64,000 nucleotides of DNA, taken from NCBI RefSeq assembly GCF_003334785.1, contig NZ_QOWV01000002.1. One strand, given 5' to 3'. Of the stretch, positions 15,751-30,443 are shown piece by piece. Within the stretch, counting starts at the first letter, position 1; each line of letters opens with the position of its first letter. The notes below the pieces were generated by a model. That model did not search any database. It worked only from the letters and a program-made list of their open reading frames with translations, and was not told the origin of the DNA. Origin of the DNA: Escherichia coli. Lineage in GTDB: Bacteria; Pseudomonadota; Gammaproteobacteria; Enterobacterales; Enterobacteriaceae. The translations under genes were made by a program, and so were the position numbers.

Positions 15751-17220
15751 ATGGTTTCCGAAACTAAAACCACAGAAGCGCCGGGCTTACGCCGTGAATT
15801 AAAGGCGCGTCACCTGACGATGATTGCCATTGGCGGTTCCATCGGTACAGGTCTTTTTGTTGCCTCTGGCGCAACGATTTCTCAGGCAGGTCCGGGCGGG
15901 GCATTGCTCTCGTATATGCTGATTGGCCTGATGGTTTACTTCCTGATGACCAGTCTCGGTGAACTGGCTGCATATATGCCGGTTTCCGGTTCGTTTGCCA
16001 CTTACGGTCAGAACTATGTTGAAGAAGGCTTTGGCTTCGCGCTGGGCTGGAACTACTGGTACAACTGGGCGGTGACTATCGCCGTTGACCTGGTTGCAGC
16101 TCAGCTGGTCATGAGCTGGTGGTTCCCGGATACACCGGGCTGGATCTGGAGTGCGTTGTTCCTCGGCGTTATCTTCCTGCTGAACTACATCTCAGTTCGT
16201 GGCTTTGGTGAAGCGGAATACTGGTTCTCACTGATCAAAGTCACGACAGTTATTGTCTTTATCATCGTTGGCGTGCTGATGATTATCGGTATCTTCAAAG
16301 GCGCGCAGCCTGCGGGCTGGAGCAACTGGACAATCGGCGAAGCGCCGTTTGCTGGTGGTTTTGCGGCGATGATCGGCGTAGCTATGATTGTCGGCTTCTC
16401 TTTCCAGGGAACCGAGCTGATCGGTATTGCTGCAGGCGAGTCCGAAGATCCGGCGAAAAACATTCCACGCGCGGTACGTCAGGTGTTCTGGCGAATCCTG
16501 TTGTTCTATGTGTTCGCGATCCTGATTATCAGCCTGATTATTCCGTACACCGATCCGAGCCTGCTGCGTAACGATGTTAAAGACATCAGCGTTAGTCCGT
16601 TCACCCTGGTGTTCCAGCACGCGGGTCTGCTCTCTGCGGCGGCGGTGATGAACGCAGTTATTCTGACGGCGGTGCTGTCAGCGGGTAACTCCGGTATGTA
16701 TGCGTCTACTCGTATGCTGTACACCCTGGCGTGTGACGGTAAAGCGCCGCGCATTTTCGCTAAACTGTCGCGTGGTGGCGTGCCGCGTAATGCGCTGTAT
16801 GCGACGACGGTGATTGCCGGTCTGTGCTTCCTGACCTCCATGTTTGGCAACCAGACGGTATACCTGTGGCTGCTGAACACCTCCGGGATGACGGGTTTTA
16901 TCGCCTGGCTGGGGATTGCCATTAGCCACTATCGCTTCCGTCGCGGTTACGTATTGCAGGGACACGACATTAACGATCTGCCGTACCGTTCAGGTTTCTT
17001 CCCACTGGGGCCGATCTTCGCATTCATTCTGTGTCTGATTATCACTTTGGGCCAGAACTACGAAGCGTTCCTGAAAGATACTATTGACTGGGGCGGCGTA
17101 GCGGCAACGTATATTGGTATCCCGCTGTTCCTGATTATTTGGTTCGGCTACAAGCTGATTAAAGGAACTCACTTCGTACGCTACAGCGAAATGAAGTTCC
17201 CGCAGAACGATAAGAAATAA
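15751..17220 (+). CDS. lysP: Lysine-specific permease (APC family)
   Basis: 489-aa amino-acid permease ORF. Confidence 0.95.
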   Translation: MVSETKTTEAPGLRRELKARHLTMIAIGGSIGTGLFVASGATISQAGPGGALLSYMLIGLMVYFLMTSLGELAAYMPVSGSFATYGQNYVEEGFGFALGWNYWYNWAVTIAVDLVAAQLVMSWWFPDTPGWIWSALFLGVIFLLNYISVRGFGEAEYWFSLIKVTTVIVFIIVGVLMIIGIFKGAQPAGWSNWTIGEAPFAGGFAAMIGVAMIVGFSFQGTELIGIAAGESEDPAKNIPRAVRQVFWRILLFYVFAILIISLIIPYTDPSLLRNDVKDISVSPFTLVFQHAGLLSAAAVMNAVILTAVLSAGNSGMYASTRMLYTLACDGKAPRIFAKLSRGGVPRNALYATTVIAGLCFLTSMFGNQTVYLWLLNTSGMTGFIAWLGIAISHYRFRRGYVLQGHDINDLPYRSGFFPLGPIFAFILCLIITLGQNYEAFLKDTIDWGGVAATYIGIPLFLIIWFGYKLIKGTHFVRYSEMKFPQNDKK

Positions 17221-17240
17221 GTTTCCTCCCTTCCTTGCTA

Positions 17241-17266
17241 AGCCCTCTCAACCGAGAGGGCTTTTT
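17241..17266 (+). terminator. Rho-independent terminator downstream of lysP
   Basis: AGCCCTCTC-AACC-GAGAGGGCT hairpin followed by TTTTTC. Confidence 0.8.
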
Positions 17267-17314
17267 CAATTCCATTTCCCTGACAAATCATGCGGATATA
17301 AAATTTAACATTTG

Positions 17315-17344
17315 GATTGATAATTGTTATCGTTTGCATTATCG
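17315..17344 (+). promoter_or_regulatory. Fur box-like operator in cirA promoter
   Basis: GATTGATAATTGTTATCGTTTGCATTATCG resembles the GATAATGATAATCATTATC Fur consensus; cirA is a classical Fur-repressed gene. Confidence 0.6.
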
Positions 17345-17513
17345 TTACGCCGCAATCAAAAAAGGCTGACAAATCAGAGGCTGTTCCGGCTTTCTGGGAT
17401 GATCACCTGCATAAAAAATAAGTCCACCGCGATGCTGCCGTACGCAAGGGGACGTGAAGAAGATGTGAGCGATAACCCATTTTATTTTCGTAGTTACCTC
17501 ATGGAGATATGGA

Positions 17514-19505
17514 ATGTTTAGGTTGAACCCTTTCGTACGGGTCGGGCTGTGTTTGTCCGCTATTTCTTGTGCATGGCCTGTGTTAGCGGTCGATGATGAT
17601 GGCGAAACGATGGTTGTCACTGCATCTTCCGTGGAACAAAATCTTAAAGATGCACCTGCCAGTATCAGCGTCATTACCCAGGAAGACCTGCAGCGAAAAC
17701 CGGTACAGAATCTGAAGGATGTCCTCAAAGAAGTGCCTGGCGTACAACTGACGAACGAAGGGGATAACCGTAAGGGCGTTAGTATTCGTGGTCTGGACAG
17801 CAGCTATACCCTGATTCTCGTCGACGGTAAACGCGTGAACTCCCGCAATGCCGTCTTCCGCCACAATGATTTCGATCTGAACTGGATCCCGGTCGATTCC
17901 ATCGAACGTATTGAAGTGGTCCGTGGCCCGATGTCGTCGCTGTACGGTTCCGATGCGCTCGGCGGTGTAGTGAATATCATCACCAAAAAAATCGGTCAGA
18001 AATGGTCGGGTACCGTTACCGTCGATACCACCATTCAGGAACATCGCGATCGCGGTGACACCTATAACGGTCAGTTCTTTACCAGTGGACCATTAATTGA
18101 TGGTGTGCTGGGAATGAAAGCTTACGGCAGCCTGGCAAAACGTGAAAAGGATGACCCGCAAAACTCAACGACCACCGATACCGGAGAAACGCCGCGTATT
18201 GAAGGATTCTCCAGCCGCGACGGCAATGTCGAATTTGCCTGGACACCGAATCAAAATCACGATTTTACTGCCGGATACGGTTTCGACCGTCAGGATCGTG
18301 ATTCCGACTCGCTGGACAAAAACCGCCTGGAACGCCAGAACTACTCCGTCAGCCATAATGGGCGTTGGGATTACGGCACCAGCGAACTGAAATACTACGG
18401 TGAGAAAGTCGAGAACAAAAACCCTGGCAACAGCAGCCCGATAACTTCCGAAAGCAATACGGTCGACGGCAAATACACGTTGCCGCTGACGGCGATTAAT
18501 CAGTTTCTCACGGTTGGCGGTGAATGGCGTCACGACAAACTTAGCGATGCGGTGAACCTGACCGGGGGAACCAGCTCCAAAACGTCTGCCAGCCAGTACG
18601 CGCTGTTTGTGGAAGATGAATGGCGGATCTTCGAGCCGCTGGCGCTGACGACCGGCGTGCGTATGGACGATCACGAAACCTACGGTGAACACTGGAGTCC
18701 GCGTGCCTACCTGGTTTATAACGCCACCGACACCGTAACGGTGAAAGGGGGCTGGGCGACGGCATTTAAAGCACCTTCTCTGTTGCAACTTAGCCCTGAC
18801 TGGACGAGCAATTCCTGCCGTGGCGCATGTAAGATTGTGGGTAGCCCGGATCTGAAACCAGAAACCAGCGAAAGTTGGGAGCTGGGGCTTTACTACATGG
18901 GTGAAGAAGGCTGGCTGGAAGGGGTTGAATCCAGCGTTACCGTTTTCCGTAACGATGTGAAAGATCGTATCAGCATCAGCCGTACGTCTGACGTCAACGC
19001 TGCACCGGGCTACCAAAACTTTGTTGGTTTTGAGACGGGCGCTAACGGACGGCGCATACCGGTATTTAGCTACTACAACGTTAACAAAGCTCGTATTCAG
19101 GGCGTGGAAACCGAACTGAAAATTCCGTTCAACGATGAATGGAAACTGTCGATCAACTACACCTACAACGATGGTCGTGATGTCAGCAACGGCGAAAACA
19201 AACCGCTATCCGATCTGCCGTTCCATACTGCTAACGGTACGCTGGACTGGAAACCGCTGGCGCTGGAAGACTGGTCATTCTATGTTTCTGGGCACTATAC
19301 CGGGCAGAAACGCGCCGACAGCGCGACGGCTAAAACACCGGGCGGTTATACCATCTGGAATACCGGCGCGGCCTGGCAGGTGACTAAAGACGTCAAACTG
19401 CGCGCAGGCGTGCTGAACCTTGGCGACAAGGATCTCAGTCGTGACGACTACAGCTATAACGAAGACGGACGTCGTTACTTTATGGCAGTGGATTATCGCT
19501 TCTGA
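17514..19505 (+). CDS. cirA: TonB-dependent outer membrane receptor (colicin I receptor, catecholate siderophore uptake)
   Basis: 663-aa ORF with signal peptide, TonB box (ETMVVTAS) and C-terminal aromatic residue (ends ...DYRF). Confidence 0.95.
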
Positions 19506-19536: not shown

Positions 19537-20406
<870 letters not shown>

Positions 20407-20630
20407 TCATCATACCGTTTATTCAATGTGCTGTGAGTAACTTTCACTTCCGTATTTGCATAACGATGTTTTAACATCTGCTGATGAAAGGCAGCGGCAA
20501 TTACAATAATTATCGCTGTGAATACTGGATTATGTGCGCCGCCTCACGCACAATAATCAGGCTGTAAATCAGCTTAATAACTTTGCCCCCACGCAGGGCG
20601 GAGGCGTCACACCTGCAGGAGAAATCATAA

Positions 20631-30250: not shown

Positions 30251-30443
30251 GTGATCTTCCTTAATGCTATAGGTAATTAAGGCGAGCGTTTAGTAAATAA
30301 TAATGTACTGATATTAAGGCTAAGCGTGCGGGGGAATTTAAACTGTGAAAAGATTCACAAATAGCTGCGGTTAGGAATGTGATATCCGCAGCTTATCAGG
30401 TGAAGTAATAATTATTCTCAATAATTAACTGGAGAGGGGAATA

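Follow-up and report, generated by a model that had tools for sequence, protein, structure and literature searches.

The DNA that separates the lysP terminator from the start codon of cirA (positions 17267–17513 of the window, meaning the whole 64,000-nucleotide stretch of Escherichia coli DNA that was analysed) is, with a probability of roughly 0.93, the canonical and well-studied cirA regulatory region of E. coli, with two Fur-covered promoters, a long leader, and sites for the small RNAs RyhB and OmrA/B. Every regulatory element found in this control region is already known, having been mapped by experiment for this exact sequence. The present analysis established the identity with K-12 and covered promoter matches, Fur-box matches, sRNA complementarity and the conservation pattern. 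What is gained is the anchoring of the published elements to window coordinates, a pattern of conservation in 69 Enterobacteriaceae that matches the published sites, and the removal of an incorrect hairpin hypothesis. The region is relevant to iron uptake, colicin sensitivity and antibiotic sensitivity, CirA being a receptor also for siderophore-conjugated antibiotics.

Genomic context and conservation

The gene upstream of cirA is lysP (15751–17220 in the ORF list), whose intrinsic terminator hairpin on the plus strand (17240–17263; 10 pairs followed by a T run in the terminator scan) forms the upstream edge of the cirA control region. The cirA coding sequence (17514–19505, plus strand) encodes a TonB-dependent receptor of 663 amino acids, identified from the ORF list and the RefSeq annotation of identical DNA as the receptor for catecholate siderophores and colicins Ia/Ib. 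Its start codon lies at 17514, and the studied interval is the gap between the terminator and this codon. The intergenic region between lysP and cirA (17221–17513) is the same as that of E. coli K-12 MG1655 at 293 of 293 bases, so that published K-12 coordinates transfer directly to the window. The mapping was based on the cirA ATG, located at 2244791 in NC_000913.2 and at 2246769 in version.3. Positions 17200–17560 were present in all complete E. coli genomes (5426 of 5426), annotated as lysP and cirA.

Two observations concern the surroundings of the locus. In seven related genomes (strains 0H15–0H26 and 2021CK-01361), the 3′ end of lysP, together with the region of its stop codon, is duplicated in tandem over 59 bp just upstream of the lysP terminator, equivalent to an insertion after window position 17238 (L084:140–198 in strain 0H26); the cirA promoter and leader are unaltered in all seven. 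On a larger scale, window and MG1655 coordinates run exactly in step from cirA as far as 30450 and differ by 46 bp at 59940, which implies either a net 46-bp indel between these two points or a window from a strain other than MG1655.

For the cross-species comparison, a collection of species-representative genomes was scanned with the first 220 amino acids of CirA. This yielded 80 loci from Escherichia, Salmonella, Enterobacter, Klebsiella, Kluyvera, Citrobacter, Buttiauxella and others, with the ATG in the same place in all of them, and the removal of sequences at least 95% identical left 69 upstream regions for alignment. Three blocks were found to be conserved: the Fur box and promoters (17296–17345), TGTGAGC (17464–17470), and ACCTCATGGAGA..GGAATG (17496–17516). 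Conservation is limited to these blocks, which coincide with the Fur/promoter, RyhB, and OmrA/B–Shine-Dalgarno elements, respectively, and 17346–17462 is poorly kept. Furthermore, species differ in the spacing between Fur box and ATG, which across Enterobacteriaceae is either about 175–209 nt or about 100–147 nt (loci compared for leader length: L012, L016, L019, L044, L057, L065 and L079). The short leaders, found in Enterobacter, Leclercia and others, have no equivalent of 17356–17415 or of a still larger segment, including the 5′ stem-loop of E. coli. One locus (L031, CACSKA010000001.1) comes from a contig named 'Chryseobacterium sp. 18061', and its cirA is typical of Enterobacteriaceae (85% identity), with the same Fur box and leader; this assembly is probably mislabelled or contaminated.

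Tandem promoters under a cluster of Fur boxes

An information-theory study of Fur sites reports the cir DNase footprint as NC_000913.2 2244957–2244999, and describes three overlapping cir Fur sites that span 31 bp and are centred on 2244980, at −189 from the gene start (PMC2189734). Mapped through K-12, the footprint corresponds to window positions 17306–17348 and the centre of the cluster to 17325. Within it, three Fur 19-mers overlap in a 6-bp register, starting at 17313, 17319 and 17325 and matching GATAATGATAATCATTATC at 13, 14 and 12 of 19 positions, respectively; they make up the core of overlapping Fur boxes at 17313–17343. The Fur-like site of the initial annotation (17315–17344) falls inside the published footprint and overlaps two tandem promoters, and its distance to the cirA ATG, put at about 170–200 nt, was measured as 170–199 nt.

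No site with three or fewer mismatches to the Fur 19-mer consensus was found in the 64-kb window, and the search used the full mismatch spectrum together with the 7-1-7 motif in place of this cut-off. Six or fewer mismatches occurred at only 37 of about 128,000 positions (both strands, 64 kb), three of which belong to the cirA site. In addition, no sequence in the window matches the 7-1-7 Fur motif better than 17318–17332 (TGATAATTGTTATCG), which shares first place with two mismatches. The cirA Fur site is thus moderate as a single consensus match and strong as a cluster. The operator block ATTGATAAT..TTATC.TTT..TTATC is kept in most of the 69 species, with ATTGATAAT....TTATC at 80–100% identity in the alignment. 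Fur is reported to occupy the DNA upstream of cirA in vivo, RyhB raises cirA RNA, and a cirA fusion has been studied in a fur mutant on account of Fur repression (PMC2588501).

Other Fur-like sequences were noted elsewhere in the window. At 20496–20514, a Fur-like 19-mer with five mismatches (GGCAATTACAATAATTATC) lies about 120 nt past the 5′ end of ORF 19537..20373, which encodes an esterase-like protein of 278 amino acids on the minus strand. A site at 59967–59985 (GATAATGAGATTTATAATC) has four mismatches to the 19-mer, the joint lowest count in the window, and belongs to the yehK–yehL intergenic region of K-12; we know of no published link of this site to Fur. The sole other site in the window with two mismatches to the 7-1-7 motif is 30406–30420 (TAATAATTATTCTCA), located between yeiS and preT (yeiT), about 156 nt upstream of preT, and coinciding with the Fur-site cluster predicted for yeiT at −163 (PMC2189734).

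A consensus promoter scan of the plus strand from 17150 to 17600, done blind to the published transcription starts, returned exactly two sites, TTAACA-17-TATCGT and TTGATA-17-TATCGT. The first is cirA promoter P1 (17305–17341, plus strand), with its −35 hexamer TTAACA at 17305–17310 and its −10 hexamer TATCGT at 17328–17333. The second is P2 (17317–17354, plus strand), with TTGATA at 17317–17322 and TATCGT at 17340–17345. Guillier and Gottesman (2008), who cite the original mapping, give the p1 and p2 leaders as 173 and 160 nt (PMC2588501). By arithmetic from these lengths, transcription would start at A17341 for P1 and at A17354 for P2; the 5′ untranslated leader accordingly occupies 17341–17513 on the plus strand for the P1 transcript and begins at 17354 for that of P2. 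The −10 hexamers end 7 nt (P1) and 8 nt (P2) before the starts implied in this way.

The long 5′ untranslated region proposed initially is therefore borne out by the published leaders of 173 and 160 nt, matched by the only two promoter-like sites in the region. The operator overlaps both promoters, the hexamers of P1 (17305–17333) and of P2 (17317–17345) lying within the 17306–17348 footprint, and the length of the transcript's leader is the reason for its large distance from the ATG. A promoter directly before the start codon, which the initial annotation had named as the finding that would speak against a long leader, was not what emerged, both promoters being located in the Fur footprint. 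As a further observation, most non-Escherichia species have a near-consensus TTGACATAA upstream of P1 at 17293–17301, where E. coli has CGGATATAA; judged by this resemblance, other genera may use a third, stronger −35 element or promoter that E. coli does not have.

RyhB pairing site and Hfq

Control of the cirA leader by RyhB and Hfq, as claimed for this DNA at the outset, is well founded. A comparison with the RyhB sequence, suggested at the same time as a check, revealed 12 contiguous base pairs at 17462–17473 on the plus strand (−52 to −41), where GAUGUGAGCGAU pairs with RyhB nucleotides 41–52; the flanking GAAG at 17456–17459 faces CUUC of RyhB. Among 2842 background windows of 90 nt drawn from the 64 kb, this match ranks in the top 0.7% by run length and only in the top 3.5% by hybridisation energy. 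In a local duplex search, the single-stranded RyhB core (nucleotides 41–52, AUUGCUCACAUU, plus CUUC) bound −58 to −41 of the leader with −22.1 kcal/mol, and the whole segment from −90 to −1 gave −22.2 kcal/mol with the same core. The sequences of RyhB, OmrA and OmrB were taken from the K-12 record, and sRNA–leader duplexes were computed over 28-nt local windows in place of whole-length RNAduplex. Whole-length RNAduplex runs of sRNA against leader gave meaningless end-to-end duplexes (−69.7 kcal/mol over 200 nt for RyhB), and the top local RyhB match uses RyhB's own terminator hairpin (nucleotides 65–91) and was discarded as inaccessible.

Experimental evidence for this site has been published. 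Wang et al. (2015) used a mutant fusion together with the corresponding ryhB mutant to confirm that RyhB activates cirA directly (Fig. S3; PMC4666370), and their mutagenic oligonucleotide JW5381 changes cirA TGTG to GTAT (PMC4666370). This change maps to 17464–17467, the centre of the predicted RyhB duplex, so that the four bases altered in the compensatory-mutation experiment lie within the 12-bp match. Across species, GTGAG was found in 62 of the 69, the median distance to the ATG being 50 nt and most distances falling within 44–58 nt. Most genera have TGTGAGCAAT, a perfect complement of RyhB nucleotides 41–50. Escherichia, Salmonella, Atlantibacter and Buttiauxella have TGTGAGCG, with G at 17471 where most genera have A, which yields a G-U pair with RyhB.

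In secondary accounts of the published work, Hfq is described as binding at a translational enhancer in the cirA 5′ untranslated region and blocking translation, with the RyhB site upstream of the Hfq site. The same accounts state that RyhB, once bound upstream, restructures the 5′ untranslated region and prevents Hfq binding. A U-rich tract on the plus strand at 17479–17491 (AUUUUAUUUUCGU), just upstream of the Shine-Dalgarno sequence, is from its position and composition the probable Hfq-binding 'translational enhancer'. Its U/G-rich composition is kept in all species of the alignment, and the sequence itself is variable.

OmrA/OmrB site and translation start

The OmrA/OmrB pairing site on the plus strand (17495–17504, −19 to −10) consists of UACCUC at 17495–17500, an unpaired A, and UGG at 17502–17504, and overlaps the Shine-Dalgarno sequence. 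Read directly, its sequence complements CCCAGAGGUA, the 5′ end of OmrA/B, and the −19 to −10 site of cirA has been validated by compensatory mutations (PMC2588501). The block containing it is almost invariant in the 69 species. In the window-based energy search, the site (6+3 bp) was not ranked first, as expected for so short a duplex, and whole-length duplexes of OmrA/B with the leader were no better than shuffles.

The start region on the plus strand (17503–17516) comprises the Shine-Dalgarno GGAG at 17503–17506, GGAA at −3 to +1 and the cirA ATG at 17514–17516, and these columns are invariant. The conserved GGAA was remarked on by Guillier and Gottesman, who also found that changing four of the six nucleotides between the Shine-Dalgarno sequence and the ATG had an unexplained 8-fold 'up' effect (PMC2588501). 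An invariant out-of-frame ATG is located at −13 (17501), opening a 6-codon ORF, MEIWNV (17501–17521), that ends 5 nt into cirA.

Folding of the leader and alternative readings

As a whole, the leader shows little sign of a conserved fold. Its folding energy equals that of dinucleotide shuffles (z of +0.21 for the P1 and −0.29 for the P2 leader), and the RNAalifold consensus over the species is essentially empty. Several alternative readings nevertheless attribute a role to local structure or to coding potential in this region.

The least improbable alternative is a hairpin that sequesters the ribosome site in cis, formed between part of the U-rich tract (17483–17491, UAUUUUCGU) and 17501–17509 (AUGGAGAUA), with Hfq or RyhB stabilising or opening it. 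In E. coli, these pairs are predicted with P of about 0.8–0.93 and occur in both the minimum-free-energy and the centroid structures of the P1 and P2 transcripts; moreover, the literature describes a restructuring of the cirA 5′ untranslated region upon RyhB binding. The comparative data, however, make this reading unlikely. Across the 69 species, 61.8% of cells pair, as against 61.1 ± 0.7% in shuffles and 62.1% when the partners are slid by +3, and RNAalifold keeps only two pairs of the stem. In addition, U-A and G-U pairs account for six of the nine, a weak composition expected of any U-rich tract beside a purine-rich Shine-Dalgarno sequence. The hairpin predicted in E. coli was rejected as indistinguishable from the shuffled and slid controls in 69 species. 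Judged from the alignment, what has been kept near the Shine-Dalgarno sequence is a richness in U, as an Hfq site or enhancer would show, and not a helix.

A second predicted structure involves the RyhB site itself. In Escherichia and Salmonella, the 5′-terminal 14–17 nt of the P1 transcript (17344–17357, GUUACGCCGCAAUC) can pair with the RyhB target site at 17462–17476, with P of about 0.8 in the P1 fold. The duplex is significant in E. coli (z = −3.3), in Salmonella (z = −2.9) and in a few other taxa; it is not general, the mean z over 60 species being −0.51, with only 20% of them below −1.5. In E. coli and Salmonella, the G at 17471 weakens RyhB pairing to G-U and strengthens the helix with the leader's own 5′ end. 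The P2 transcript, starting at 17354, is without most of the 17344–17357 arm, so that masking of the RyhB site could depend on which promoter is used, in which case P1 and P2 mRNAs would differ in their dependence on RyhB and Hfq. We consider this modelled scenario improbable; the helix itself would be a lineage-specific feature, and a low-probability one.

The initial annotation had placed a possible hairpin near the ribosome-binding site, at GGATGATCACCTGCAT, and suggested that it could occlude translation. In the predicted fold, most positions of the segment are strongly paired (P of 0.8–0.98), and this is the one point in favour of the proposal, which is otherwise contradicted and very improbable. 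The segment lies at 17398–17413, that is −116 to −101 from the ATG, about 90 nt from the Shine-Dalgarno sequence and some 100 nt from the ribosome-binding site. Its partners (P ~0.8–0.98 in the partition function) are local, namely 17363–17371 and the 17374–17397 hairpin, and not the ribosome-binding site. Together they form a variable 5′ stem-loop on the plus strand (17363–17408 in the minimum-free-energy and partition-function folds), which includes most of the segment. No part of the leader is less conserved or more often deleted than this stem-loop (cross-species identity of 0.17–0.49, occupancy of 0.54–0.71), and 17356–17415 is gapped in Enterobacter spp. and other short-leader species. 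Furthermore, deletion of the dispensable segment −149 to −54, which contains the stem-loop, left cirA-lacZ activity similar to that of the full-length fusion and retained the response to OmrA/B (PMC2588501).

Equally hard to sustain is the proposal of a regulatory upstream ORF or leader peptide that overlaps the cirA start, beginning at ATG 17432 (17432..17521, 29 codons) or at ATG 17501 (17501..17521, MEIWNV). An open frame at 17324..17521 does end 5 nt into cirA, the ATG at 17501 is invariant in the alignment, and an alternative start near GGAA was a speculation of Guillier and Gottesman (PMC2588501). Neither ATG, however, is preceded by a Shine-Dalgarno sequence; 17432–17462 is among the least conserved parts of the leader and contains frame-breaking indels, and the OmrA/B and Shine-Dalgarno block accounts for the invariance of the 17501 ATG. 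The ORF 17324..17521 was likewise rejected as a leader peptide, since it has neither a Shine-Dalgarno sequence nor conservation. Finally, a riboswitch or transcription attenuator, for which 160–173 nt would be in the range of lengths, can practically be discounted: Rfam at E ≤ 10 gave no family match to the leader and only chance matches on the lysP terminator, the folding energy equals that of shuffles, the scan found no terminator-like site between the TSS and the ATG, and the central leader is unconserved and variable in length.

Working model of cirA control

The preferred reading, a leader governed by Fur at the promoters and by RyhB, Hfq and OmrA/B near the start codon, draws on the literature for Fur footprinting, for leader lengths (from TSS mapping), for Hfq repression and for the compensatory-mutation tests, while the exact Hfq site is one that we infer. 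For the start sites, the location of Hfq and the change in leader structure, it relies on secondary citations of the original studies. According to this model, transcription proceeds from tandem sigma-70 promoters, P1 (TSS 17341) and P2 (TSS 17354), both under overlapping Fur boxes (17306–17348). With these boxes over both promoters, Fe2+-Fur blocks transcription when iron is plentiful. The leader RNA, of 173 or 160 nt, carries the further control. When no sRNA is present, Hfq in the U-rich region beside the Shine-Dalgarno sequence would repress translation and the mRNA would be unstable. Under iron starvation, RyhB, itself Fur-repressed, would pair at 17462–17473, restructure the leader, displace Hfq and activate translation. 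OmrA and OmrB pair over the Shine-Dalgarno sequence (17495–17504) and repress. The middle of the leader, from about 17356 to 17455, is an evolutionarily variable spacer with no demonstrated role.

Comparison with known systems

A parallel to this arrangement is shiA, which together with cirA has been named as one of the two RyhB-activated targets. Both have a long 5′ untranslated region in which RyhB pairing upstream of the ribosome-binding site activates translation. In shiA, RyhB opens a self-inhibitory hairpin over the ribosome-binding site, the classical anti-antisense mechanism. The cirA leader differs in that its published repressor is Hfq rather than a cis hairpin, and no conserved hairpin at the ribosome site was found in the aligned leaders.

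With respect to cirA itself, the window and the published systems agree. The K-12 cirA (cir) promoters P1 and P2 and the Fur operator (Griggs and Konisky, 1987, 1989, as cited in PMC2588501 and PMC2189734) belong to the same locus, with no difference; footprint, promoters and leader lengths map exactly onto the window, the sequence being the same at 293 of 293 positions. Repression by OmrA and OmrB (Guillier and Gottesman, 2008; PMC2588501) is likewise matched with no difference, UACCUC-A-UGG being present here. Nothing in the sequence differs from the published RyhB-activated cirA system either: for the activation of cirA by RyhB through antagonism of Hfq (Salvail et al., 2013, EMBO J; confirmed by Wang et al., 2015, PMC4666370), the pairing site in the window includes the four published mutated bases.
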